Virus record (IMG/VR): IMGVR_UViG_3300043009_000101
Origin: a virus
Lineage: Duplodnaviria; Heunggongvirae; Uroviricota; Caudoviricetes
Reading direction: 5' to 3' (one strand)
Length of the DNA stretch: 48,863 nt
Under the pieces are notes generated by a model that was given only the letters and a program-made list of their open reading frames with translations, made no database searches and was not told where the DNA came from. Position 1 is the first letter of the stretch, and every line of letters begins with the position of its first letter. A program made the position numbers and the translations under genes. Positions 1 through 36,591 of the stretch are shown here, piece by piece.

Positions 1-127
1 TCTCTGCCTTAATTTAGCTATGGCTAGGTTTGTCTCTGCCTTAATTTAGCTATGGCTAGGTTTGTCTCTGCCTTAATTTAGCTATGGCTAGGTTTGTCTC
101 TGCCTTAATTTAGCTATGGCTAGGTTT
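1..127. repeat. 32-bp tandem repeat (TCTCTGCCTTAATTTAGCTATGGCTAGGTTTG), about 4 copies, truncated by the window start
   Basis: Identical units start at 1, 33, 65 and 97, followed by degenerate TAGGTTTAGCTA remnants to about 150. Confidence 0.95.
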
Positions 128-2930: not shown

Positions 2931-4114
2931 AAAACGAACTCCAGCATATGCGGGCAAAGAGCTAGATTCAACGGAAACTCTGTAAGGAGCAAGACTAAAT
3001 CGTAGTGCAAGGTGTCTTCCTGATTGTAGAGATGATAAGTTGCCTGAGTGTGTGGGTCTGTGTAAATCACTTCATCTTTGATAATTACACCATCACAATA
3101 AATTGGGCTTCTAGTGGTTGTTCTAAAATCTACATCAAGAGATTCCGATTGCAGATAAGCAGCAATACGGGAAGGTATATACATAGTTTCACCATGTCCG
3201 AGTACAAGAATCTTATGCTCATAGGCGAGATGCGGGCGGATTTTATTGGCTGCGGATTGGGCAAGTTTTTCTAGTTGCTTGATATCTTGGTAGTGCATAC
3301 CAAATCTGCCTGTGTGCTTTAAGTATAACTCACCATTCTTATAGCGTGGAAATAGATTTAATGCAAGTGGTGGGATAGGATTCGTTGCAGTGATTGGTGT
3401 AGAATCTTGGTTGTGTAAAATAACTGTTGGTTTCTGTGTATGGGAAAGAATTTCATCATCTGCATATAAGGAATAAACATGAATATGAATACCGTATGTG
3501 GCTGCATAGTGGTAATATCTTTGAATATCTTCCTTGCTGCGATTATCCATAATGGTTAAGATACTATACTCTCTGATGTTGGAGTTAGCACGGAGATTTG
3601 TAATTATATTTAAAAGAGAATGGCCTGTGCTAATTTCATCATCTACAAGAATAACTTCTTTAAACTTGTCTATCTCGACAAAATCGGAATAAAGAGTGTG
3701 GGTTGTAGCATGGCTGTGCTCTTCTTCAAATGTAAGCAGAGGAAGAACTTTTTTTACAGGTTCTCTTGTAGTATGAATATACACAGAACCGTCTATGGCA
3801 GATGCAACGGCTAAACCTAATGCAGTTGCTGTTTCGCAGAAGCCAATTACTAATGGTGGTGTATCTGTGGGAAAGGCTTGTAGCTTATAATTTGGTGCAG
3901 CATCATCGAAAATAGTATGTATGGAAAGCATTGGGTTGAACGGATACTTCAAAGAAGCAAGAAGATACCCTGTGGCTTTCACAGTTTCTGGTTTAACTGG
4001 AAGATGCTTACCTAGAAGCTTAGATATAAAGAGGAAATCACGATTCGGATTATCTACTCGCTTTCCCATGGTATAAATATCATCTGGGTTTAGATTGTAT
4101 GGGTTTTTTATCAT
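2927..4114 (-). CDS. Phosphoribosyltransferase (PRTase_2) with C-terminal TRSP domain (ter-associated cluster)
   Basis: NPNRDFLFISKLLGKH, GFCETATALG, PRPP-binding VILVDDEISTG, and TRSP-like LGHGETMY...TTTRSP. Confidence 0.85.
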   Translation of the reverse strand: MIKNPYNLNPDDIYTMGKRVDNPNRDFLFISKLLGKHLPVKPETVKATGYLLASLKYPFNPMLSIHTIFDDAAPNYKLQAFPTDTPPLVIGFCETATALGLAVASAIDGSVYIHTTREPVKKVLPLLTFEEEHSHATTHTLYSDFVEIDKFKEVILVDDEISTGHSLLNIITNLRANSNIREYSILTIMDNRSKEDIQRYYHYAATYGIHIHVYSLYADDEILSHTQKPTVILHNQDSTPITATNPIPPLALNLFPRYKNGELYLKHTGRFGMHYQDIKQLEKLAQSAANKIRPHLAYEHKILVLGHGETMYIPSRIAAYLQSESLDVDFRTTTRSPIYCDGVIIKDEVIYTDPHTQATYHLYNQEDTLHYDLVLLLTEFPLNLALCPHMLEFVL

Positions 4115-4170
4115 AAGAATTACCTTTTCTCTTTCTTAATAATGGTTGTAGCAGTGTTGGAAAAATTGAA

Positions 4171-5241
4171 TTATAAAGTATGCACATCTATGGATTCATC
4201 AGCAACACCGAAAACTTCTGCTTTGGCTAAAATCTTCTTAGCCCATGCAAGATGTGGGGAAACTTCGCACATCTGATTGGCGGATGTGCTTTTGAAAACA
4301 CCTGTTGCAGATTTTTCAGCAGCTTCTACGATGGACTTAGCATCTTTATACTCAGCATAAGATACGATAAATCGTTTACTAACGGGATTGATTTGTGAAG
4401 GGTGGATAATTGTTTTACCGTGAAAGCCGTTTTGAATATCTAAATCAAGTTCTTTGAGCAAGCCTTGAATTTCTGGTGAGTTAACAGACCACGAAAAGTA
4501 CTCCCAGACTGGTCCAGAGATTACATACCCTTGTGGAGTGCGGGAAAAGTAATTCAGAATGTCGGTTAAGGCATCGCTGACAACTTTTATGTCATAAATG
4601 GTCGTGGTCATACTTCTTCGTAAGCCATAAAGGGAAGAAAAATCTGTGCCACCAACTCGTAAGCCTAATATGTAGGAGTTGTATTGTTCGAAAATATGGC
4701 TTAGTTTTTCAAGCTCTTGTAGGCGGGTTTCTTTATACATCACTTGTGCATCTTCCAGTATAGGTAATCCGTAAAGTACAGAATTGGTAGAAATAGATAA
4801 CTGCTTTAAAGTTTCAAAGTAAGAGACAGCATTGGTACTGTTGCATTTTGGAAAATTAAAACCAGTCAAATATCTCAAATGCTTGGGTGTTAGCTTCTTG
4901 GCGAAGGCTTGAAACTGCTGAGGAGTTCTGACTCGTATAAAAAGAAGTGGAAGTTCTTCTGGATTGATATTTTTTTCGGCTAATTTGTTGAGAAGATACA
5001 ATGTTGTTATTTCTGCTTCGAGAACATCTTGCTCTTCGATAGCATCTTCCATGCATAGAGTTAAAGCACCCAAGTTAGTATACTTCTGCGTAACTAATTT
5101 TCTAAATATTTGTCTATTCGTAGCTGGGCAGTACATATTAGCACCGAGTGCATATTGTAGAATCTGCTTAGGTGTATCTTTTGTTATGGGAATTGGCTCC
5201 TTATAAAATTTCAATTTGTCAATGTCTTGAAAGTGCTGCAT
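4171..5241 (-). CDS. HpcH/HpaI aldolase / citrate lyase-beta family protein (ter-associated cluster)
   Basis: LGANMYCPAT, CMEDAI, RVGGTDFSSLYGLRR, SGPVWEYF, GKTIIHPSQI; RBS GAGGT. Confidence 0.85.
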   Translation of the reverse strand: MQHFQDIDKLKFYKEPIPITKDTPKQILQYALGANMYCPATNRQIFRKLVTQKYTNLGALTLCMEDAIEEQDVLEAEITTLYLLNKLAEKNINPEELPLLFIRVRTPQQFQAFAKKLTPKHLRYLTGFNFPKCNSTNAVSYFETLKQLSISTNSVLYGLPILEDAQVMYKETRLQELEKLSHIFEQYNSYILGLRVGGTDFSSLYGLRRSMTTTIYDIKVVSDALTDILNYFSRTPQGYVISGPVWEYFSWSVNSPEIQGLLKELDLDIQNGFHGKTIIHPSQINPVSKRFIVSYAEYKDAKSIVEAAEKSATGVFKSTSANQMCEVSPHLAWAKKILAKAEVFGVADESIDVHTL

Positions 5242-5333
5242 TTTTGTACCTCGTGTAAGATATATAGCGATTTTTCATAATTTTAAGCTGTGTACATAAA
5301 TTTAAGTTAATATTAGCACATAATAAAGGTATA

Positions 5334-5364
5334 AAAAATAACGGTGCTATGCACCGTTATTTTT
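5334..5364 (-). terminator. Intrinsic terminator (possibly bidirectional) closing the mini-CRISPR transcript
   Basis: Perfect 14-bp inverted repeat AAAAATAACGGTGC / GCACCGTTATTTTT with a 3-nt loop and T-tracts on both strands. Confidence 0.8.
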
Positions 5365-5389
5365 ATGTAAAGTGGAAACAAAAATCTGT

Positions 5390-5480
5390 GGAAACCAACC
5401 CCGCCCGTGCGGGGCAAACTCTTCAGGATTAATATTCTTTTCTGCGAGTTTGGAAACATCCCCGCCCGTGCGGGGCTCAC
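5390..5480 (-). CRISPR. Orphan type I-E-like CRISPR mini-array (repeat-spacer-repeat)
   Basis: Minus-strand repeats GTGAGCCCCGCACGGGCGGGGATGTTTCC (5480-5452, 29 nt) and GTTTGCCCCGCACGGGCGGGGTTGGTTTCC (5419-5390, 30 nt) share the CCCCGC..GCGGGG hairpin typical of type I-E. Spacer 5420-5451 is 32 nt. No cas genes in the window. Confidence 0.88.
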
Positions 5481-5535
5481 TTGTGTGTTTCCACTCAAGC
5501 ACCTCAATATATAATGCTTTTCCTTGTATGAATAT

Positions 5536-5563
5536 AGTATACCACTAAAATTACAATATGCAA
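5536..5563 (-). promoter_or_regulatory. SigmaA-type promoter upstream of the mini-array
   Basis: Minus strand TTGCAT-16 nt-TATACT with an extended -10 (TGgTATACT), about 55 bp upstream of the first repeat. Confidence 0.65.
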
Positions 5564-5692
5564 GAAAAAATTAAAAAATTCTCATAGCTATAAATATGAA
5601 AATGCCTTTTGCAGTATAAAATTTCTAAAATACTATACAATATAGATAAATTATTCTATACTATATATGAAGATATGAGGAGGATTAGTAAA

Positions 5693-5890
5693 ATGTATCA
5701 TATTGAATTTAAATACAAGGATAGTTGGAGCAGAGGTGCATGGCAACAGCAGGAATGCTTCGTTTCTTCTGTGCAGCAGTGTATAGATATTTACGGTCTT
5801 GGTATAGATTGCGACTACAAAATTTTACGAGTAGAAACAGAAGAAGAATACTATGAGCGAATGGCTCGGGAAAGAGAAAAGCAGATGTAA
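5693..5890 (+). CDS. Small hypothetical protein
   Basis: GAGGAGG RBS before ATG 5693 (MYHIEFKYKD...); the upstream extension in the ORF track is AT-rich promoter-like DNA. Confidence 0.75.
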   Translation: MYHIEFKYKDSWSRGAWQQQECFVSSVQQCIDIYGLGIDCDYKILRVETEEEYYERMAREREKQM

Positions 5891-5924
5891 AACATCTGCT
5901 TTTATTTTTTGTGGTAAGAGAATA

Positions 5925-6638
5925 TTACTCTTTATTTTCATACTTTTCGAGAAGTGCATCAAAAAGCATGTGTTCAGCTGCATTTTCTGAAATTTCGGTG
6001 ATGGCATACCCGACTTCTTTTTCGAGCTTGTCTAATGCATCATCTACATCTTTGACAAGTGTACGGGTGCATTTATATGCTTCGCAAAGGAAACGAGGGA
6101 AATCTTCTTTGTCTAAAATGTCATCTAAGGCAGCACGGGTCATCGTTTGTGCAAGTTGTGTTTCATAGGTTTGTACCCAGTCTGGATGTGTGGCTGTAAA
6201 GTAAGCAACAAATAGTTCCCAAATCTTATCATCGTGTTTTGTTTTTTCAAGTTTTCTCTCATCATCAAAAAAGTTATTAGCTTTTAAAATTTCCATATAA
6301 GCAAGATTCTCTTCTTTCTTTGCTTGGAATCGCTGGATTTGCTTGTCTAAATACTTATCTTCTTCCATACAGCCAGCGAAAATATTTTTCACTCTCGATT
6401 CACGGTAGTCGATGTCAAGCAAGGCAGTTTCCTTGCTAAAAATTTCGGTATGAATAGATGCTACAATTTGTTCAATCATATTAGATGCGAACTCCCTTTC
6501 TGTATTGTGTAGGTAGTTTGTCTTAGAAAAGACAACACAAAACTCTCTCTTTTGAATTAGTTTAGCATAAATGCAGACTAGATACAAAAAAAAGGCTAGG
6601 CAGTATGACAGTTGACCTAGCCCAATGATAAGGAGCAT
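5925..6638 (-). CDS. Hypothetical helical protein (true start probably downstream of 6638)
   Basis: Long ORF with a charged helical body; the annotated N-terminus runs through a hairpin and is doubtful. Confidence 0.7.
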   Translation of the reverse strand: MLLIIGLGQLSYCLAFFLYLVCIYAKLIQKREFCVVFSKTNYLHNTEREFASNMIEQIVASIHTEIFSKETALLDIDYRESRVKNIFAGCMEEDKYLDKQIQRFQAKKEENLAYMEILKANNFFDDERKLEKTKHDDKIWELFVAYFTATHPDWVQTYETQLAQTMTRAALDDILDKEDFPRFLCEAYKCTRTLVKDVDDALDKLEKEVGYAITEISENAAEHMLFDALLEKYENKE

Positions 6639-12335: not shown

Positions 12336-13994
12336 TTACAAACTATTTTCACTAGTTTGCTTTTTTGTAGTTTCATTCTTTTTCATATATTCTGATACAT
12401 CATATTGTCTAAACATTGCTCTATAAGCAATAACTAATGCAGCAGCTTGATGTTTACTGATTTTTTTCTTTTTAGCATACATTTTTTCTCCAATTTGTGT
12501 TGTATAAGCAGGTGATACAATAAATAGCTTTACATTTTGCTTAGAACATTTAGATTCAAAAGCAGCTCTATATCTTCTAGTAGCAAAATTATGTAATATT
12601 CTATTCATAGCAGATGTGTTGGTTTTATTTTGCTTCTTGGTAGTAAAGTCTAAGTCTTCTATTGAAATACCGTAATTCAGCTTTTTAGCTTCTTCTACTA
12701 TGGTATTAATAGCTTGCATAAGTGTTTTGGTATTTGTATATGAATTTTCTTCTGTTGTGAATACAATATCTTCATTTCTTATGCAACTTCTTTTTTTGTT
12801 TACATAAGAAGTGCTTAGAAAACCATTATTCATATCCACACCTATCATGCCATCTAGACCAGTTTTTCTAAAATAGCCTTGATTTACAATATCGTATTGT
12901 TTATTCACAATAGCAGCTTTTTTTGAACCTAGTTCTTTAAATTCTTTTGAATTAGGTGCAATTGTGCAGTTTCTTTGCATTGTTACATCTAAATACCAAG
13001 ATTTATTCTTTAAACTCTTTTTAAACTTGTAAAGAATAGCTTGATTATTGTTTTGTAATAATGTATTCAACTCTTCGTTGCAGTAAGGAATTTTAATAAC
13101 GATATACCTTGTATTGACACTATCATTTTGAAAGATAGATAAACATTTCATAATATAGTGATTGTTACTAGGCTTATCTGGATTCACAGGGTATAGCTTA
13201 ATCAGACGATTACCCTGTTCTTCATTTAAAGAACCCATTAGTGTAATGCATCTGTTTCTTTTTAAACGCCAAGCTTCTAACCATTTTACTTTTCTATTCA
13301 CATATCTATCCTCGTATTGAGCTTTAAATAGCTTATGTGTTCCAAAGCAATAATTTGTGATAACTTTTGTTTTTAAGATTTCTTCCATCGTTTTTTTACA
13401 ATGTGTTAGTCTTATTATAGCCTGTCGTTTTCTGTATATTCTTGTCTTGTAATTATCATTCAACTTACAAGCATCTTTTGGTGGTTTATACCAAGTAGAA
13501 ATGGCACTGTGAAAGCTAATTCTTTCCTGTTCTAATTTTTGAATTTCACTATTTAAAGAATCAATTTTCTTTTCTGTATTCTTTAAATAGGTTTCTGTTA
13601 ATTCAAGTTGAGCATCTATTATTTGTTGAGCTACAGTAATGGCATCATAAGCAACATTTGCTTTAATACCTAATTTCTTAGCTAATTCACCCCGATACTT
13701 ATCCTTTTTGACAGTTTTATTTTTACTAAGTTTAACAAATGCCATACGGACAGCTTTATTAAATACTTCACTTGCTTTGTCTAGATAAGGACACATACTT
13801 TCGTAACCTTTAAAAGTATTTAAAGATTCCAGTATATCTTCTAAATTTGTATTTTTTGAGACATTGAAAGGAACATCCGTTATTTTATTAGCATTAACAG
13901 CTAATCTATCAAATCTACCAGAAGTTGTAAATGTAATATCTTTCATATAAGTTTCAATAGCACCACACCATGGTATAGCATAAGTATTTGACAT
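12336..13994 (-). CDS. tnpB: Large TnpB-related RuvC protein (552 aa), no zinc finger
   Basis: RuvC-I GVDMN, RuvC-II IEDLDF, VSPAYTT, RuvC-III-like HQAAALVIA; lies downstream of IS607 tnpA. Confidence 0.8.
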   Translation of the reverse strand: MSNTYAIPWCGAIETYMKDITFTTSGRFDRLAVNANKITDVPFNVSKNTNLEDILESLNTFKGYESMCPYLDKASEVFNKAVRMAFVKLSKNKTVKKDKYRGELAKKLGIKANVAYDAITVAQQIIDAQLELTETYLKNTEKKIDSLNSEIQKLEQERISFHSAISTWYKPPKDACKLNDNYKTRIYRKRQAIIRLTHCKKTMEEILKTKVITNYCFGTHKLFKAQYEDRYVNRKVKWLEAWRLKRNRCITLMGSLNEEQGNRLIKLYPVNPDKPSNNHYIMKCLSIFQNDSVNTRYIVIKIPYCNEELNTLLQNNNQAILYKFKKSLKNKSWYLDVTMQRNCTIAPNSKEFKELGSKKAAIVNKQYDIVNQGYFRKTGLDGMIGVDMNNGFLSTSYVNKKRSCIRNEDIVFTTEENSYTNTKTLMQAINTIVEEAKKLNYGISIEDLDFTTKKQNKTNTSAMNRILHNFATRRYRAAFESKCSKQNVKLFIVSPAYTTQIGEKMYAKKKKISKHQAAALVIAYRAMFRQYDVSEYMKKNETTKKQTSENSL

Positions 13995-14015
13995 TTACGA
14001 ACCTCCTTTCAAATA

Positions 14016-14669
14016 CTATTCTATAAATACCTCATCAATTTTGTCTTTAAGCTTCTTAGTATCTTGTCTTCGTAAACTGTATAATTTACCAGAAAAGGAA
14101 GCTATTAAAGACATCATATCTTCTACAAGTTCTTCTTGATTTGTTTTTGCAAAATCATCTTTTACTAAAATGATTTTAACATGGAAAACATTGAAATATC
14201 TAACAAGGTAATCAAAACCAAATCTTGTTAATCTATCCTTGTATGTAATAAATACACGATTAACTTCATTGTTTTCTATCATCTTGAATAATTTCAGTAA
14301 ATTCTTTCTATTTTGATTTAAGCCAGAACCGACATCTTTTAAAATAACTGGTGAATAAAGATTGTATTCTGCTGTATTCTCTAAAATATAGAGTACTTGC
14401 CTATCTAAATCTCCTGTGTTTTTCTGCTTTTGAGAGGAAACTCTAGCATAGATTACATCCTTTTTTAAGGAAGAATCTTGGTAAAGACCTCGTTCTTTAC
14501 CAACTCTTATTATCTCAGCTTTTGGTATGTAATGGCGATTATCAATAGTTACTGAATCTATTTTACCATTATGAGTCCAATTATAAAGAGTTCTTGGTTC
14601 TATACTTAAAAGTCTTTTTACATCCGCTGGTTTGTAAAACTCTTTATCTAAATCCGAATCGCTAAACAT
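14016..14669 (-). CDS. tnpA: IS607-family transposase (wHTH + serine recombinase)
   Basis: N-terminal MerR-like HTH, YARVSS, DVGSGLN, YKDRLTRFG, ELVEDMMSLIASFSGKLY. Confidence 0.92.
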   Translation of the reverse strand: MFSDSDLDKEFYKPADVKRLLSIEPRTLYNWTHNGKIDSVTIDNRHYIPKAEIIRVGKERGLYQDSSLKKDVIYARVSSQKQKNTGDLDRQVLYILENTAEYNLYSPVILKDVGSGLNQNRKNLLKLFKMIENNEVNRVFITYKDRLTRFGFDYLVRYFNVFHVKIILVKDDFAKTNQEELVEDMMSLIASFSGKLYSLRRQDTKKLKDKIDEVFIE

Positions 14670-28447: not shown

Positions 28448-30805
28448 TTAGTTTTCTGTTTGTTCGTCAGGTTCTTGTACTATAGTAGATGGGCTTAGCA
28501 CTCCCATAGGGGAAATGTATGTGCTATTAAAATTAAAAGTATAAGTAACTTCTTTACTACAAGAGTCATTCGTATCCCCAGTTAAATAATAAGTAACTGT
28601 TTTTGTTATGTTATTGTCATCTGTGTACTGCCATGATATTTTGTTATCAACCTTTTGAGCATTATCATATGCGAGATTATTCTCATAATATAAAAATGGT
28701 AAATTATTTACATCTGTATCAAATTCTAAGTGTATTTCTTGTATATCAGGTAAACCAGCATCTGTACTGTTTACTTCAAAGATTACTTCCTCATATCTTG
28801 GGGCAGAATCTGTCCAGTAACCTTGTGTTACAGATTGCTCATATACAGATTGCTGGCTTACTAAATAAGCATTCACCATAGTTTTTATATCGTTCTGAAC
28901 ATCTTTTGAAACGACACCATTAGTACTCCTAAGCTTACCATTATTATCATAAGCCCAACTACCCCATACTGGTATATATTTAGTCTGGCAATATGTACCC
29001 TCTATACCCTCTGTATGTATCTCTTTTCGTGATAATGTACCAACATTAATTGTATTATCTTGTGTATCTGTTACAGATACAATTTGGTCTTTCTCAAAAT
29101 AAAAATAAGGCATATTTGCATTTTCAGAGTCTAGGTATCTGTAATACCGCAGTGTTACTTTAAATTTACCGTCAGTAGTTTTATCATACTTAAATGTATA
29201 ATATGCATAATGACAATTCCAAAATTCTGTACCCTCTGATATTGTTGCTACATTAAAAACAATATCTTCTGTAGCATACGTTTCTCCAGATTGCATATCA
29301 ATACTATTACTTTCTGCATTCGTACCACTAAAAGTAATTGTTCCTGCCTTTACAGTAACAACAGAATTAGTATCAGTTGTATCTGATATTGTTTCTTCTT
29401 TACTTGGTAGAGTGGAAGAGGTTTCTTCTTTACTTGGTAGAGTGGAAGAGGTTTCTTCTTTACTTGGTAGAGTGGAAGAGGTTTCCTCTTTACTTGGTAA
29501 AGTGGAAGAGGTTTCTTCTTTACTTGGTAGAGTGGAAGAGGTTTCTTCTTTACTTGGTAGAGTGGAAGAGGTTTCCTCTTTACTTGGTAAAGTGGAAGAG
29601 GTTTCTTCTTTACTTGGTAGAGTGGAAGAGGTTTCTTCTTTACTTGGTAGAGTGGAAGATGTTTTTTCCTTCTCTGTATCTGTACCTATTACAGTTGAAA
29701 TAAATGTAGTCAGCCAGTTAGAATTATCTGTGTCTGTTGCAGCTTCTTTATCTTCTGACTTATCTTTATCTTTATCCTTATCAGAATCTGTTTCCTCAAT
29801 ACCCAGCCTATCCTCAATGAAATCATTTACTGCTTCTTGGTCTTTATCCTGACTGGATTCCCGTTCTGCTAAGATATCTGCAATCTTATCTTGATAATCG
29901 CTGGCATAATCGTCATAATCATCGCCAAAAATTTCTTTTTGCAACTCCCGCTCTTCTTCAGTTAACGAATTACGAATTTTGGCTAATTCATCTTGCTTGG
30001 CTGCAAACTCTGCAGCGGTAAGGAACTCGCCTGATACAAAATCTTCACCAAAATTCAAAGTGGAACGGTCTACCGTAATATCATCCGCAGAAACTTTGGC
30101 TCTGGTTTCATCTGTTACAGGTGCATACCCGTAACGATTGATTGTCAGTTGTCTTGGATTGGACTGGGCTTCTTTATGGCTGATGATGTTCAAATAAACT
30201 TCTTTGACTTCTGTATTACCAGATGTGTCATAAGCCATGACATTCAGGACATAAGCACCTACCTTGGATAAGTCTAAATCGCCGTTGGCATCGGTCAAAA
30301 CATACGAAGCATCGGTATCATAATCGAAGATGTTGTAATAATCAAGCAATTCTTTCTCGCTCTTTAAGGCGGATTCCTCGACATAAAGAGTTAAGTATAA
30401 ATTGCGGAATTCTGGCGGAACATTGTCCGTTACGGAAACTAGAATCGGTTCCTCTTGGTCGCCTAATAGCATATCCACATCATATTTTCCCATGTAGAGA
30501 TACGGAAGATTTAAATCTGTGGCAACACAAGTGTCTTCATCATAATTATATTTTGTACTGTCATACAAGTCCGAATTTGCTATGGTCTTTGTTTTTGCTT
30601 TTGATGTCATTGTTGTAGCAAGCAATCTGTCTTTACCAACATTTGCTTCTTCGTAGCCTGCTTCGTAGCCAACATATGGACTTCTTACAAGCAAAACATT
30701 GAAGTTGAAAATGTACCACAATGACCCAAATAGAATAATAGCTGCCAAGGCAATAATAAGGACTATGCCTGAATACAAAACTTTGCTCTTGGTCTTTTTC
30801 TGCAT
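28448..30805 (-). CDS. Large surface protein: TM anchor, Ig-like domain, acidic region, 10-aa repeats, Tyr/Thr-rich C-terminal domain
   Basis: N-terminal hydrophobic helix; TDNVPPEF...GAYVLNVMAYD Ig-like motif; 9 x TSSTLPSKEE. Confidence 0.8.
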   Translation of the reverse strand: MQKKTKSKVLYSGIVLIIALAAIILFGSLWYIFNFNVLLVRSPYVGYEAGYEEANVGKDRLLATTMTSKAKTKTIANSDLYDSTKYNYDEDTCVATDLNLPYLYMGKYDVDMLLGDQEEPILVSVTDNVPPEFRNLYLTLYVEESALKSEKELLDYYNIFDYDTDASYVLTDANGDLDLSKVGAYVLNVMAYDTSGNTEVKEVYLNIISHKEAQSNPRQLTINRYGYAPVTDETRAKVSADDITVDRSTLNFGEDFVSGEFLTAAEFAAKQDELAKIRNSLTEEERELQKEIFGDDYDDYASDYQDKIADILAERESSQDKDQEAVNDFIEDRLGIEETDSDKDKDKDKSEDKEAATDTDNSNWLTTFISTVIGTDTEKEKTSSTLPSKEETSSTLPSKEETSSTLPSKEETSSTLPSKEETSSTLPSKEETSSTLPSKEETSSTLPSKEETSSTLPSKEETSSTLPSKEETISDTTDTNSVVTVKAGTITFSGTNAESNSIDMQSGETYATEDIVFNVATISEGTEFWNCHYAYYTFKYDKTTDGKFKVTLRYYRYLDSENANMPYFYFEKDQIVSVTDTQDNTINVGTLSRKEIHTEGIEGTYCQTKYIPVWGSWAYDNNGKLRSTNGVVSKDVQNDIKTMVNAYLVSQQSVYEQSVTQGYWTDSAPRYEEVIFEVNSTDAGLPDIQEIHLEFDTDVNNLPFLYYENNLAYDNAQKVDNKISWQYTDDNNITKTVTYYLTGDTNDSCSKEVTYTFNFNSTYISPMGVLSPSTIVQEPDEQTEN
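29391..29660 (-). repeat. 30-bp coding tandem repeat x9 (TSSTLPSKEE)
   Basis: Units start every 30 bp from 29391; synonymous variant units at 29481 and 29571. Confidence 0.95.
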
Positions 30806-30915: not shown

Positions 30916-32000
30916 TTAGTTGGTTGTTGTTTCTTCTTGGTTAGAATCAGTTTCTGGGGTAGAGGTTGTGTCTGCATCAGTGGTTGTACTTGGTAATTCT
31001 TGAACATCCGTGCTGGATGCTGTAATAGTAATTGAAAAGAGTTCTATTTCTGATACATCCCCCGTAGGATTACTTGACTCCAGAAATACACCCTTTGAAC
31101 TATTATATGATTTAAGAACACCTATAACACTATAATCATTTGTATCATCTGCACCCGTAATTTCTGAAACAGTTAAAGTCTTTGTAGCACCCGCATTCAA
31201 ATAAATGGTAATTTCTTTTTTAATATAATGTTTATTTTCATCTGACCATTGATAAGGGAATTTTTCCATTAAATCCTTCCTAGTAAACACATCATCTAGT
31301 ATTAGACCATTGTATCCGCTTAGAATATATGCCTTTCCCGTAGCTTTCACCTCAGTTACTGCATTATATTCTTCCTGACTATCCGTATCCACATAATACA
31401 CACCGCCAGTATAGGTCTTGTCATTGATATTCTGCTTAGACAAAGGTGTTAATACATCAACTATCCCACCGTCTTCTTCTTTAATTAATTGTATAGCGGT
31501 AAACCAGTCACTGCCCTTGAAGTCAGTTTTAGATGCTATTCCTGTTAAATACCCTGTATCTCTAAATTCCAAAGTATAAACATAGTTATCCGTATCTGTG
31601 TCATAGACAACATTTTTAAATATAATGCTACTGTACTCCTTGAAATTATCTTTATACGTATCACTAACATCAGGTTCCTGTTCTAGTAATGTATACTCTG
31701 TACCTAGTGTCAAATCTGTTGTTTCACCATTGATTGTATAAGCTAGCTTAGGATAAGTCTTTGGTGTATCATCATCAGACGAATTACTATCAGACGAATT
31801 ACTATCAGACGAATTACTGTCAGACGAATTACTGTCAGACGAATTACTATCAGACGAATTACTATCAGACGAATTACTATCAGACGAATTACTATCAGAC
31901 GAATTACTATCAGACGAATTACTATCAGACGAATTACTATCGGACGAATTACTGTCAGACGAATTACTGTCAGATACATTAGTGCTTGCAGAGTTATTAC
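30916..32000 (-). pseudogene. 5'-truncated surface-protein gene abutting the right end of element 2
   Basis: Begins at the IS junction directly in a Ser/Asn linker with no signal or anchor; the track's MGLLLRNIGWFLFFCK start is IS right-end sequence. Confidence 0.7.
31775..31969 (-). repeat. 15-bp coding tandem repeat x13 (DSNSS)
   Basis: Unit TCAGACGAATTACTA on the plus strand; variants (GAC/GAT, TCT/TCC) are synonymous only in the DSNSS frame. Confidence 0.95.
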
Positions 32001-32222
32001 CGTAGCTATTTTTGCAGAAAAATAAGAACCACCCTATATTTCTTAACAAGAGCCCCACGGCTGGCTGACAGCTAATAGTAACTACAGCCTAATATTATTA
32101 ACCGTGGTTAATTATATTAAACTATAATCTAGCATGGCTTATATAAATCCTCTGGTCTATAAAAAGTTGTTAGATATTACCATTAGCTGGGTCTGTATAC
32201 AAGAGGAGTATCACCTTCATTT
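32001..32222 (-). ncRNA. Putative omega-RNA scaffold of element 2
   Basis: Stem CAGCTAATGGTAA/TTACTATTAGCTG is positionally equivalent to the element 1 stem but differs in sequence; the CCAGAGGATTT.TATAAGC block and terminal TAAGA/TCTTA hairpin are conserved. Confidence 0.6.
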
Positions 32223-33824
32223 CTATTTATACTCCTCTACATCAAATTGCTTTCCCATAGCTCGTAGAGCTATGGTCAAAGCAGCAGCTTGATGTACACT
32301 AATTTCATATTTAGGTGCATATAATTTTCTACCTATACGAGTAGTATATGCAGGAGATACAATGAAAAATCTTACATTATTTTTAGAACATGCAGATTCA
32401 AAGGCTTCTCTACATCTTCTAGTAGCAAAATTATGTAACATTCTATTCCTTGCTTTTCCATTTTTAGCTCTTTTCTTTTTTGTAAAGTCTAAATCTTCGA
32501 TAGCAATACCATAATTTAGTTCCTTAGCCTCTTTAACTAACTCACTAATATGAGTTAATAATCGTTCTTTATTCTTTGTTGAGCTGTCTTCCGTTGTAAA
32601 GAATAAATCTTTACTTCTTTCATATTCTTCCTTTTTGCTTAAATAAGTAGCACTAAGGAAACCGTCATTCATATCAACACCAATCATCCCAGATAATTTC
32701 GTGTTTTCAAAGTAAGTATCATCAATATAGGCATATTTCCTGTTTTTTAGGAATGCTTCCTCTTTATCTAAGGATTGGAACTCCCTAGAATTCGCTTTAA
32801 TAGTACGATTTCTTTGGAGAATTACATCTAGATACCAAGAATAGCCATCTTTAGCTCTCTTAAAGCGATATTGTACTGCTTGATTATTTAGCATTAAAAC
32901 CTCATTTAAGAAAGCACGATTGTAAGGTATTCTAATAATAAAATACCTAGCTTTTTTCATGTCATCTCGAAATATAGATAGACATCTCATAATAAAATAT
33001 TGATTATCAAATGAGCCCTCTTTAACAGAATAAAGTTTAATTAACCTATTTCCTTGAGCTTCATCTTGAGAACCACCAAATACAATGCATCTATCTCTTC
33101 TCAATCGCCATTTTTCTAACCATTTTGCATGATTGTACTTATAGTTAGAATTTTGCTTTTTAAAGAAATACCAACCACCAAAACAATAATGTTTTATAAT
33201 TTTAGTGTTCACTTCTTTTTCTAATGCTTGCAACTCATATTGTTTTTTTATTATAGCTTGCTTTTTCCAATAGAGAGCCTTTTTTAAGTGTGCATTTTGA
33301 ATACAAGCATCCTTAGGTGGATACAACCAATTTCTAACAGATAAATTGTATTCTATCCTTTTATTTTCCAGTTCTGCATATTCCTTCTTTAGTACTTCAA
33401 GTCTTGCTTTCAAATCTACAATTCTCTTTTTAGTACTTTCAAAATGAGCATCTCTGTATTTTTCTGCTTCTGATATAGCATCATATGCTACAGAAACTTT
33501 GATACCCAACCTATCTGCTAATACTTTTCTATATTGAGTTTTGGAAACTGCTTTTCCTTTATTACAATGTGAAAAAGCTATACGAACAGCTTCACCATAG
33601 ACAGCTGATGATTTATCCAAATACCTAGTTAATTCGTTGTAATTATCCTCAGAATTCAACTGAGTTAATAACTCTTTTTCTGAAATTCCGGGTACATTGA
33701 AAGGTATTTTAGTAATTTTGGATTTCTTCATAGCAAATTTATCTAATCTACCAGAAGTAGTAAATGTAATATCTTTCATAAAATTTTCCACAGCACCACA
33801 CCATGGTATTTTAAAATCTGCCAT
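32223..33824 (-). CDS. tnpB: Large TnpB-related RuvC protein (533 aa), no zinc finger
   Basis: GVDMND, IEDLDF, VSPAYTT, HQAAALTIA; collinear with 12336..13994. Confidence 0.8.
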   Translation of the reverse strand: MADFKIPWCGAVENFMKDITFTTSGRLDKFAMKKSKITKIPFNVPGISEKELLTQLNSEDNYNELTRYLDKSSAVYGEAVRIAFSHCNKGKAVSKTQYRKVLADRLGIKVSVAYDAISEAEKYRDAHFESTKKRIVDLKARLEVLKKEYAELENKRIEYNLSVRNWLYPPKDACIQNAHLKKALYWKKQAIIKKQYELQALEKEVNTKIIKHYCFGGWYFFKKQNSNYKYNHAKWLEKWRLRRDRCIVFGGSQDEAQGNRLIKLYSVKEGSFDNQYFIMRCLSIFRDDMKKARYFIIRIPYNRAFLNEVLMLNNQAVQYRFKRAKDGYSWYLDVILQRNRTIKANSREFQSLDKEEAFLKNRKYAYIDDTYFENTKLSGMIGVDMNDGFLSATYLSKKEEYERSKDLFFTTEDSSTKNKERLLTHISELVKEAKELNYGIAIEDLDFTKKKRAKNGKARNRMLHNFATRRCREAFESACSKNNVRFFIVSPAYTTRIGRKLYAPKYEISVHQAAALTIALRAMGKQFDVEEYK

Positions 33825-33843
33825 TTATAGAAGCCTCCTTACT

Positions 33844-34515
33844 CTAAACTTCTTCTGTAAATACCTCATCAATTTTGTCTTTGAGTTTCTTAGCATCTTT
33901 TTTGGTATCTTGCTTTCTTAAGCGATATAATTTACCAGAAAAAGAAGCTATTAAAGACATCATATCTTCTACAAGTTCTTCTTGATTCGTTTTTACAAAA
34001 TCATCTTTTACTAAAACAATCTTTACATTGAATACTGCAAAATATCTAACAAGATATTCATAGCCAAAGCGGGTTAGTCTATCTTTGTAAGTAATAAATA
34101 CCCGATTTACTTCATTGTTCTCAATCATCTTAAAGAGTTTTAGTAAATTCTTTCTTTTCTGATTTAAACCAGAACCCACATCTTTTAGAATAACTGGTGA
34201 ATATAACTTGTAATCTGTTGTATTCTCTAAAATATAGAGAACTTGTCTATCTAAATCACCGTCATTCTTCTGCTTTTGAGATGAAACCCTAGCATAGATA
34301 ACATCTTTCTTTGTACAGTCTTCTAAGTAAAGACCTCGTTCTTTACCTAATCGTATGATTTCTTTTTTAGGTACATAGTTTCTATTATTTATGCTTACTG
34401 ATTCTATTTTACCATTATGAGTCCAGTTGTAAAGAGTTCTTTGTTCTATACCTAACAGTTTTCTAACATCAGCGGGCTTATAAAACTCTTTCTTTAAATC
34501 AAAATCACTAAACAT
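33844..34515 (-). CDS. tnpA: IS607-family transposase
   Basis: Close paralog of 14016..14669; start ATG 34515 after GAGAGG. Confidence 0.92.
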   Translation of the reverse strand: MFSDFDLKKEFYKPADVRKLLGIEQRTLYNWTHNGKIESVSINNRNYVPKKEIIRLGKERGLYLEDCTKKDVIYARVSSQKQKNDGDLDRQVLYILENTTDYKLYSPVILKDVGSGLNQKRKNLLKLFKMIENNEVNRVFITYKDRLTRFGYEYLVRYFAVFNVKIVLVKDDFVKTNQEELVEDMMSLIASFSGKLYRLRKQDTKKDAKKLKDKIDEVFTEEV

Positions 34516-34540
34516 ATGTTTACCTCTCAATCTTGATTAC

Positions 34541-34569
34541 AGTATACATTAGCTTAGCGATTTTGTCAA
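34541..34569 (-). promoter_or_regulatory. SigmaA promoter in the left end of element 2
   Basis: TTGACA-17 nt-TATACT. Confidence 0.75.
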
Positions 34570-35528
34570 ATATTTATTTCATTTTTAGAAGAATTTCTAT
34601 GAATTCTTGAAAATTGGCTACTGTGGTCTACCCTTGCATCTGAATAAGTACCGTCTAAGAGCCTCCTTCCCGGATGTACATTATTATGAGAGCCTATATT
34701 TCCATTATTCATAGTTCTTGCTGGTGCTGGTGCATTCCATTTCATACGCTTGTAAGTATTATGAAAGCCTTTTATACGAGTACCATCTGCCTTTTTAGGA
34801 TAATATACTTCATTGGTCATAGCACTACAGCCTTCAGCAGTATGTTTCATACATTCAATTTCACGAGCATTATGTTTCTTTGCATTATGATATTTAATAT
34901 TGGATGTTTCACCAGCTTCTAAGCTAGGCAAATCTCCTATTGCTTCTTGCAAAGTAATCTCTTTTTGTACCTCTGGCCATCCCCAGAGCAAACCTTTTTT
35001 ATAAAGTTTTATAATTGCCCTTGGTCTACTCTGTGGCACACCATAATCCTTAGCATTTAACACCTTAGCCTCTACAATGTACTTAGATGCATACTTATCT
35101 CTTAGTATATCTTCCAAAGTAGAAAAACCATTTTTATATGGAAAAAACATGGTTAAAAACCGAGGTACATTTTCTATTAGAATATAATTAAAATCCTTAT
35201 TATCAATTACATCCAAAATATCGAATACCAGATAATTTCTAGGGTCGGATTGCATTTGAGACAATTTTTTATTCACACCTAATGTGCTCACACCTTGGCA
35301 TGGAGGTGTTGCAATTAAAAACTCAACATCTTGCTCAATACTACTGAGAAAAATTTCTTTTGTTTTACGAATATCTCCAACAATCATTTTCACGTCAGGG
35401 TACATTTTCGAATAAAATTCAGCCCTCTTCTGTAGCAACTCACTAGCCACAACAATATCAATGTTGGCCTTCTTAAAATATGTTTCTGCAATTCCTGCAC
35501 TTGAAAACATGGAAGCTCCTTTAATCAT
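34566..35528 (-). pseudogene. C5-cytosine DNA methyltransferase (second of a tandem pair), C-terminally truncated by element 2
   Basis: Motif I FSSAGIAE, IV PPCQG, VI ENV, VIII PQSRPR. Native sequence stops at ...SDARV (34629); about 52 aa present in the paralog, including motif X GEAIPP, are missing. Confidence 0.85.
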
Positions 35529-36591
35529 CGTTTTCACCAATTCCTTTCACAATATTATATGCAAGCATAGGCGGTATAGCTTCACCTATAATTTGCCTAA
35601 CAAATGTATCAGTACACCACTCGGGTACATTCCAATCTTCTGGTAAAGATTCAACAATAAATAATTCTTTTAATGTCAATGCCCTTGCATCCGAATATGT
35701 TCCATCTGGTAATTTTCTACCCGGATGTACATTCTCTTGGGAAGATATAGCATCACTTCTCATTGTTACAGCAGGTGCGGGTGTATCCCACCGCATTCTT
35801 TTATAGGTAGAATTAAATCCTTTAATTCTACTACCGTCTTTTTTAATTGGATAATACTCTGTATTATCAAATGCAGAACAACCTGTTGGTGTATGTTTCA
35901 TCCATAGGATATGCTTAGCCATATGCTTTCTTGCACTATGATATGGTATATTCGAAGTTTCCCCTGCTTCCAAGCTAGGCAAATACCCAATAGCTTCTCT
36001 CAAAGTAATTTCTTTCTGAATTTGTGGCCATAACCAAGTTAAGCCCTTCTTATATAATTTTACAATAGCCCTTGGTCTACTCTGTGGCACACCATAATCT
36101 TTTGCATTTAGTACCTTGGTTTCAATCGCATAAGTATCTGCATACTTATCCTGTAATATCTCTTGAATTGTTTTCAACTCATCTTTATAGGGTAATAATA
36201 CTTTCAAAAAACCCGGAACATTTTCTATTAAGATATAGTCAAAGTCAGCAGCATCTATTACATTTAAAACATCGAAAATCAAATAATTTCTAGGGTCTTT
36301 CATCCTAGAATCCAAGTCCTTATTTTTACCTAAATTGCTGACCCCTTGACATGGTGGTGTTGCAACTAAGAACTTAACATCCTCTGTTATACCATTCAAA
36401 AACTCAGATTTAATACTCTCTTGTCGTATATCACCGACTATCATATGAGTATTAGGATACATTTCTTGATAAAATTTACCTCTCTTAGCTAATAACTCGT
36501 TAGCAACAACAATATCTATACCTGCTCTCTTAAAATATGTTTCACCAATTCCCGCACTAGCGAACATAGATGCACCTTTCACAATAATCAC
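35521..36591 (-). CDS. C5-cytosine DNA methyltransferase (first of pair; resembles HgaI-type M1/M2 enzymes)
   Basis: FASAGIGE, PPCQG, ENVP, PQSRPR, TRD NVHPGR..DGTYSDAR, motif X GEAIPP. Confidence 0.9.
   Translation of the reverse strand: MIIVKGASMFASAGIGETYFKRAGIDIVVANELLAKRGKFYQEMYPNTHMIVGDIRQESIKSEFLNGITEDVKFLVATPPCQGVSNLGKNKDLDSRMKDPRNYLIFDVLNVIDAADFDYILIENVPGFLKVLLPYKDELKTIQEILQDKYADTYAIETKVLNAKDYGVPQSRPRAIVKLYKKGLTWLWPQIQKEITLREAIGYLPSLEAGETSNIPYHSARKHMAKHILWMKHTPTGCSAFDNTEYYPIKKDGSRIKGFNSTYKRMRWDTPAPAVTMRSDAISSQENVHPGRKLPDGTYSDARALTLKELFIVESLPEDWNVPEWCTDTFVRQIIGEAIPPMLAYNIVKGIGENDD

Follow-up and report, generated by a model that had tools for sequence, protein, structure and literature searches.

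Why would a phage-like element carry one CRISPR spacer that nearly, and not exactly, matches the gene beside it? This question is raised by IMG/VR virus record IMGVR_UViG_3300043009_000101, a stretch of 48,863 nucleotides that was analyzed as a whole and is called the window below. On its minus strand, a repeat-spacer-repeat unit with type I-E anatomy is located 150 to 240 nt 5' of the start codon (position 5241) of a gene for a C-C bond lyase, and its single spacer resembles a stretch inside this gene. We consider it moderately probable that the unit is a cas-less type I-E mini-array of a very large phage-like element of animal-gut Firmicutes, which would use the Cascade and Cas3 proteins of its host against related elements.

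Anatomy of the mini-array

The unit and the signals around it are made up of the following parts.

5563-5536, minus: candidate promoter-like site of the array unit, recognized by eye as TTGCAT (5563-5558), 16 nt, and TGg-TATACT (extended -10, 5544-5536)
5495-5486 and 5380-5371, minus: AGTGGAAACA and TGTTTCCACT, the arms of a 10-nt perfect inverted repeat that encloses the repeat-spacer-repeat unit
5480-5452, minus: repeat 1, 29 nt, GTGAGCCCCGCACGGGCGGGGATGTTTCC
5451-5420, minus: the single spacer, 32 nt
5419-5390, minus: repeat 2, the terminal repeat, 30 nt
5364-5334, minus: intrinsic terminator with a 14-bp perfect stem, a 3-nt loop, and a T run

Repeat 1 is composed of 5 nt, a 16-nt hairpin (CCCCGC-ACGG-GCGGGG), and an 8-nt handle, ATGTTTCC. 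Repeat 2 has the 5' flank GTTTG and the same hairpin, which is perfect in both repeats; its 3' handle is degenerate with a 1-nt insertion and lies outside the single mature CRISPR RNA (crRNA) that the unit would give. The degenerate parts are thus those which a mature crRNA drops, and all of the parts for one mature crRNA are intact. We used direct repeats of 28-29 nt, a period of 61 nt, and spacers of 32-33 nt as the measure of a type I-E array; the mini-array, which has two repeats only, agrees with this in having repeats of 29 and 30 nt, a 32-nt spacer, and a spacing of 61-62 nt. Neither further copies of the repeat nor other array-like repeats were found in the 48.9-kb window.

The terminator sits between the array unit and the promoter region of the next gene, thereby closing the array unit. 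The promoter-like site stayed under the threshold of a consensus scan and was not listed by it, and is hence treated as a candidate only. The inverted repeat includes the repeat tail TGTTTCC, and the predicted RNA fold of 5325-5505 pairs both of its arms (z = -7.3). No significant Rfam family, with the CRISPR-DR models included, was obtained for the array.

Also, we noticed a 65-amino-acid (aa) open reading frame (ORF) at 5693-5890 on the plus strand, which is oriented divergently to the array leader with a terminator of its own (5871-5909) and has no match in Pfam, PHROG, or PADLOC. Its location beside the repeat unit would fit a purely speculative role as an anti-CRISPR or a regulator.

The spacer and the adjoining gene

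An earlier note on this DNA, made by a model from the letters alone, had aligned the spacer to 4986-4955 of the minus strand at 26/32 nt and had placed the six differences at spacer positions 4, 6, 9, 15, 21, and 27, all of them silent. Coordinates, letters, and positions are all reproduced in our analysis; both sequences encode KLAEKNINPE, and the triplet AAC that the note had read directly 5' of the match is indeed there.

4989-4987, minus: triplet at the protospacer-adjacent motif (PAM) position, AAC, which is Asn85 of the lyase
4986-4955, minus: self "protospacer," which spans codons 86-96 of the lyase gene and agrees with the spacer at 26/32 nt, all six differences being silent

The match is in frame, with codon 86 of the gene at 5241-4171 beginning at position 4986, and AAC is found on the side predicted by the orientation of the repeats. 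Chance is excluded as the source of this match: the second-best match of the spacer within the window is 22/32, shuffling the spacer 2000 times never gave 26/32 (the best shuffle gave 25), and six random substitutions left the peptide unchanged in only 6 of 2,000,000 trials (P ~3e-6). Furthermore, the similarity between spacer and gene ends exactly at the repeat borders, and we are therefore dealing with a true unit of spacer size and not with a duplicated fragment of the gene.

Given that all of the differences are silent, the spacer and the gene must have diverged while both coded for protein; indeed, 6 of the 11 sites capable of a silent change are different. One could then suppose that the element's own gene had donated the spacer and had later escaped by mutation, for which silent changes are just what a constrained gene allows. 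A single change in the seed or the PAM would have been enough for escape, however, and differences at 6/11 sites imply a long divergence; over such a time, decay of an unused array would be expected. We consider this origin highly improbable.

It is tempting to see selection in the places of the mismatches as well. In type I-E Cascade, position 6 of the guide is flipped out, and five of the six mismatches between guide and own allele thus fall at base-pairing positions, with seed position 4 among them. Among the wobble sites, four of five paired ones differ vs one of five flipped ones (one-sided Fisher P = 0.10 by hand calculation). In this reading frame, each of the flipped positions (6, 12, 18, 24, and 30) is a wobble site, and two-fold degeneracy applies to four of them (GAR, AAY, AAY, and GAR), whereas, of the five wobble sites that are paired, three (9, 21, and 27) are four- or three-fold degenerate. 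This difference in codon degeneracy accounts for the split, and we do not accept that the self-mismatches were selected to sit at the positions paired by Cascade.

Origin of the spacer

The earlier note proposed that the spacer came from a close relative carrying another allele of the lyase gene. This origin is well supported by the sequences: the differences are all silent, the peptide is specific to the lineage, and relatives with the needed divergence exist. KLAEKNINPE sits in a variable stretch of the lyase family, and among the best 120 matches in a search of 5.8 billion proteins, it occurs in the element's own two entries only; the best other protein shares 6/10 residues, and the nearest non-self lyase homologue among those 120 is 61% identical, with none of the 119 nearest non-self homologues having the peptide. 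With the peptide limited to the element's own entries, the donor was an orthologue of the same lineage and neither a distant homologue nor a paralogue of the same element.

Relatives were found in animal-gut metatranscriptome runs as contigs that share 92-97% identity with the lyase and PRTase genes. Nearly all of the differences affect the third codon position, with local densities of up to 7 in 32 nt (3800-3831) and 9 in 43 nt. Identity of the variant contigs is ~93% at 3698-4093 and ~97% at 4608-4830, and the contig of one run is identical at 5049-5244. These RNA-library contigs cover the genes of the operon, and none of them extends over 4955-4986 or the array; the stretch at 5245-6065 is not covered, which is no statement on its expression.

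Repeat type and related arrays

The assignment of the repeats to type I-E and their minus-strand orientation, both taken from the earlier note, are supported by the occurrence of the identical 16-nt hairpin in I-E arrays of many genomes in a scan that covered one genome per prokaryotic species. Arrays with this hairpin, a 61-nt period, and the same layout of 5+16+8, with the tail ATGGTCCC, are found in Streptomyces and other actinobacteria. The hairpin is also present in an array of a rumen isolate, Ruminococcus sp. YE71. There, the array is directly 3' of a complete I-E operon, cas3-cse1-cse2-cas7-cas5-cas6e-cas1-cas2/DnaQ (the last a fusion), and has the same orientation, with the hairpin followed by the tail; this arrangement of array and operon speaks for type I-E as well as for the minus-strand orientation of the mini-array. 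I-E systems with this Cas6e hairpin can thus be present in gut Firmicutes. Choline-binding repeats in proteins of the window point to a Gram-positive host.

Searches with the repeat itself gave less. An exact 25-mer of the repeat had 0 matches in genome contigs, and the matches in metagenome contigs were degenerate arrays with 56% guanine plus cytosine (GC). A scan for Cas families among 37 proteins of the window found none.

Proposed action of the mini-array

We propose the following course of events, the steps of which are put together from the anatomy above. The spacer would have been acquired, after an AAY motif, from the orthologous C-C bond lyase gene of a related element. Transcription from the promoter-like site at 5563-5536 to the terminator at 5364-5334 would give a short RNA, which host Cas6e would cut into one 61-nt crRNA with the 8-nt handle AUGUUUCC, a 32-nt guide, and a 21-nt hairpin end. 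Host Cascade-Cas3 loaded with this guide may then destroy co-infecting or superinfecting relatives with the matching allele. The element's own allele, which is altered from the guide by six silent differences including seed position 4, would be spared by the five mismatches at paired positions; we infer that these differences prevent cleavage.

The partial match to the element's own gene also allows a different function, namely self-regulation, in which non-cleaving Cascade bound on the lyase gene would tune its operon in the manner of the CreA/CreR RNAs. CreA and CreR are crRNA-like regulators with which Cascade represses a toxin or cas promoter, and they match a promoter with no more than the PAM-proximal seed. 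The mini-array resembles them in being degenerate and in having a "spacer" that partly matches the adjoining gene, which is where crRNA-like regulators have their targets. It is unlike them in that pairing extends over all 32 nt with a broken seed at position 4, and in that the site is inside the coding sequence, 255 nt from its beginning and away from the promoter. Also, the mismatches are exactly at silent sites, as is expected of two diverged coding copies and not of a designed partial pairing. The guide has the sense of the mRNA and hence pairs with the template strand, which in interference with transcription by I-E Cascade is the weaker roadblock orientation. The earlier note had called such a roadblock less likely, and we agree on these grounds: even though arrays of huge phages without nuclease have been proposed to repress their targets (PMC7162821), we give self-regulation only a very small chance.

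Weighing the proposed action

Several observations weigh against the use of the mini-array on relatives. Both flanks of the YE71 repeat differ from those of the mini-array repeat, and the readable spacers of YE71 had no match in the window. In the collection with one genome per species, no exact-repeat array was found in a plausible host, and the pattern of handle and array was found in one Saccharopolyspora only. The scan for Cas families covered the 48.9-kb window of an element of ~577 kb, and the element may have Cas genes of its own elsewhere. The target of the spacer is an accessory operon rather than a core gene. Among the contigs spanning the array, there is one invariant spacer with no turnover. 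In E. coli type I-E systems, an incomplete match to self can set off primed adaptation against the carrier, and this would be costly for the element. The label of the carrier as phage-like is another weak point; no capsid or terminase gene was seen among the window proteins, although the layout, with nearly all genes on one strand, and the ORFan-rich content, with most genes having no Pfam or PHROG match, are consistent with it.

The spacer-type allele, moreover, which the earlier note expected in relatives, was not found in any collection searched. The exact spacer had 0 matches in viral contigs and partial matches only (E of at least 0.08) in phage and plasmid records, and a codon-degenerate pattern for KLAEKNINPE(D/E) had 0 matches in metagenome contigs, 0 in viral contigs, and 1 in genome contigs. 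We attach little weight to these blanks because the lineage is barely sampled: the three contig collections scanned (viral, metagenome, and genome) did not return the element itself, a neighbouring 237-aa ORF used as a protein query returned the element's own protein only, and a 101-aa piece around the target site used as a protein query for gene fragments scored nothing. Likewise, the helicase of the element found nothing in viral contigs, and positions 4000-6000 of the window had no match in a search of phage DNA.

The one match of the degenerate pattern, in 596 Gb searched, is within pheT of a 1.1-Mb metagenome-assembled genome (MAG) with 34% GC (L024:4450-4481). It agrees with the spacer at 27/32, and spacers of huge phages against aminoacyl-tRNA synthetase genes of the host are on record (PMC7162821); bacterial pheT could accordingly be taken as the real target, with the match in the neighbouring gene being a coincidence. 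The triplet upstream of the pheT site is AGC, however, and the degenerate pattern itself forces at least 21/32 bases to agree. The motif is absent from pheT in the 24 other matching genomes of the family (best 22/32), the MAG has no I-E-type hairpin, and the match in the window is not due to chance, all of which makes pheT an extremely improbable target. The pheT of this MAG encodes KLAEKNINPEE and agrees with the lyase gene at 28/32, which we judge to be a coincidence.

The lack of turnover could also be read as a sign of a neutral relic; that is, the unit might have arisen once, from a solitary repeat that gained a spacer or from a captured piece of a host array, and have no present function. 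The single spacer, the partial degeneration of repeat 2, and the failure to find a cognate host array in the species collection or Cas genes among the 37 window proteins would all be in line with such a relic. Nonetheless, the perfect hairpins and the intact parts for one mature crRNA are not what a relic should retain, and the unit has a promoter-like site of its own (a candidate) and a strong terminator. Furthermore, a captured host spacer would match the gene beside its insertion in a genome of ~577 kb with a chance of ~1 in 500. We thus regard a relic as unlikely and the use against relatives as the better account.

Why the adjoining gene

A random target would be within 500 nt of the array in ~1 of 600 cases on an element of ~577 kb. 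The neighbouring gene is probably the target because recombination in a phage population must not part the guide from the immune allele: a guide recombined onto a sensitive allele kills its own genome, and therefore only tightly linked pairs persist.

A further account, which is compatible with that of linkage, takes the array and the silently altered allele as a linked weapon-plus-immunity cassette spreading by CRISPR-guided marker exclusion or homing. In marker exclusion by the homing endonucleases of T-even phages, the gene for the weapon is beside a cut site that is present in relatives and silently altered in the carrier, so that repair can carry the weapon over into the rival. The nuclease of T-even phages is encoded as a protein and makes a defined break, whereas the guide of the mini-array would borrow the processive Cas3 of the host. 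At the present locus, the PAM side of the target points toward the array at a distance of 401 nt. Because the DNA that type I-E Cas3 degrades lies upstream of the PAM (PMC6897959), the gap in a rival would cross the site of the array. Repair of this gap from the genome of the carrier would copy the array together with the carrier's allele of the Ter-like operon. Weak hints in the same direction are that the identity to variant contigs rises toward the array and that the contigs from two samples have ends falling between target and array. We nevertheless consider spread by homing distinctly unlikely.

If true, homing would explain why the targets of viral mini-arrays are near the arrays, for which no reason was found in the study of PMC6858448. 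A guide beside its own immune allele is what population genetics would lead one to expect of a killer-immunity pair and is also what a homing element needs. That the guide was copied from a different allele of a gene also owned by the carrier is directly evident from the silent-site pattern, and there are few clean bacterial cases in which the origin of a guide is legible from its sequence. Having a single guide, a single target, and a single self allele, the locus may serve as a simple and testable model for the use of borrowed CRISPR systems by phages and, possibly, for spread by gene conversion.

Relation to known systems

The closest parallel is found in SPV1 and SPV2, portogloboviruses of Sulfolobales, of which the mini-arrays target close relatives, the orthologous site of the carrier is mutated, and the targets are near the arrays for an unclear reason (Medvedeva et al. 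2019, PMC6858448). The mini-array is like theirs (which have 1-2 spacers and a promoter-containing leader but no cas) in having one spacer and no cas in the window. SPV1 and SPV2 are, however, archaeal and chronic viruses of ~20 kb with repeats associated with type I-A/III, whereas the present element is bacterial and of ~577 kb with an I-E repeat. Also, co-existing strains of SPV1/SPV2 have reciprocal 100% matches, whereas the partner allele was not found here in the collections searched.

The repeats of huge phages without Cas genes are known to be shared with the hosts, other phages are the targets of some of the spacers, and use of the host Cas proteins has been inferred (Al-Shayeb et al. 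2020, PMC7162821). The similarities are a very large element with a short array and the fact that many hosts of huge phages are Firmicutes. The arrays of huge phages, nonetheless, have a median of six repeats, and their targets were called at ≤1 mismatch, whereas the mini-array has one spacer, of which the element's own silent-site variant next to it is the sole visible match.

Another precedent raises the question of whether the unit is a decoy like Racr, in which the repeats would absorb host Cas6e and Cascade subunits and the spacer would be incidental. Solitary repeats of phages located 3' of promoters inhibit I-F, I-E, I-C, and V-A systems (Camara-Wilpert et al. 2023, PMC10651486), and the mini-array is similarly a cas-less phage repeat unit with its own promoter-like site, a candidate here; Racrs of type I-E exist. 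Racrs have been described as solitary repeats, however, often beside acr genes, whereas the present unit has two repeats around a genuine spacer, its neighbouring ORFs are without family matches, and the PADLOC library gave no notable match among the neighbouring genes. Indeed, a Racr to which a repeat and a spacer were added became a working crRNA (PMC10651486). The spacer here has a non-random origin with a border consistent with a PAM, and a decoy is thus very unlikely. Taken together, the mini-array is most likely a clean bacterial example of a known viral strategy and not a new kind of system.

The lyase operon and the carrier element

The gene matched by the spacer is the first of a three-gene operon with the following features.

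5241-4171, minus: C-C bond lyase gene, Pfam PF15617, TIM-barrel fold, E 5.5e-110; first gene of the three-gene Ter-associated operon
4114-2927, minus: PRTase_2 + TRSP gene (Pfam)
2930-1887, minus: StiP + PELOTA_1 gene (Pfam), 347 aa from ATG
1844-1815, minus: terminator hairpin of the operon

The label "HpcH/HpaI-like," which the earlier note had given to the lyase, is acceptable in that PF15617 (C-C_Bond_Lyase) is a relative of HpcH/HpaI and citrate lyase beta found in Ter clusters. All three proteins (lyase, PRTase_2 + TRSP, and StiP + PELOTA) belong to families that Pfam links to tellurite-resistance (Ter) clusters. The three-gene Ter-associated module at 5241-1887 is complete on this very large phage-like element, and its nearest homologues are ≤61% identical.

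Eight contigs from several samples, the longest of 576,898 bp, encode the lyase protein without a single change. Four loci were compared and are 100% identical to the window; the two of them that reach the array carry it unchanged. Contigs of two Joint Genome Institute (JGI) samples contain the three-gene cassette only; both end at 1867, and their other ends are at 5128 and 5259. The latter two ends fall between the self target and the array and may mark a fork of strains at the array side.

At the start of the window, we noticed a 5.8-kb stretch (L002:15241-21071, which crosses the window start and includes window positions 1-127) with no ORF of >112 aa in any frame. It contains dispersed repeat families of 40-130 nt and, at its edge, a 32-nt tandem repeat in 5 copies. 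Recoding of a stop codon as the reason for the paucity of ORFs is unsupported, given that reading through any single stop opens no long frame. Two large ORFs have in-frame tandem repeats at 29361-29690 and 31714-32028 (30-nt units x ~10 and 15-nt units x ~16). Two pairs of a resolvase-type gene and a large TnpB-like gene (IS607-like) are located at 12336-14669 and 32223-34530, with their resolvase parts being ~82% identical. At 34566-36591 are two adjoining genes for C5 cytosine DNA methyltransferases, one of which matches PADLOC MTase_II with an E of 3.8e-98.

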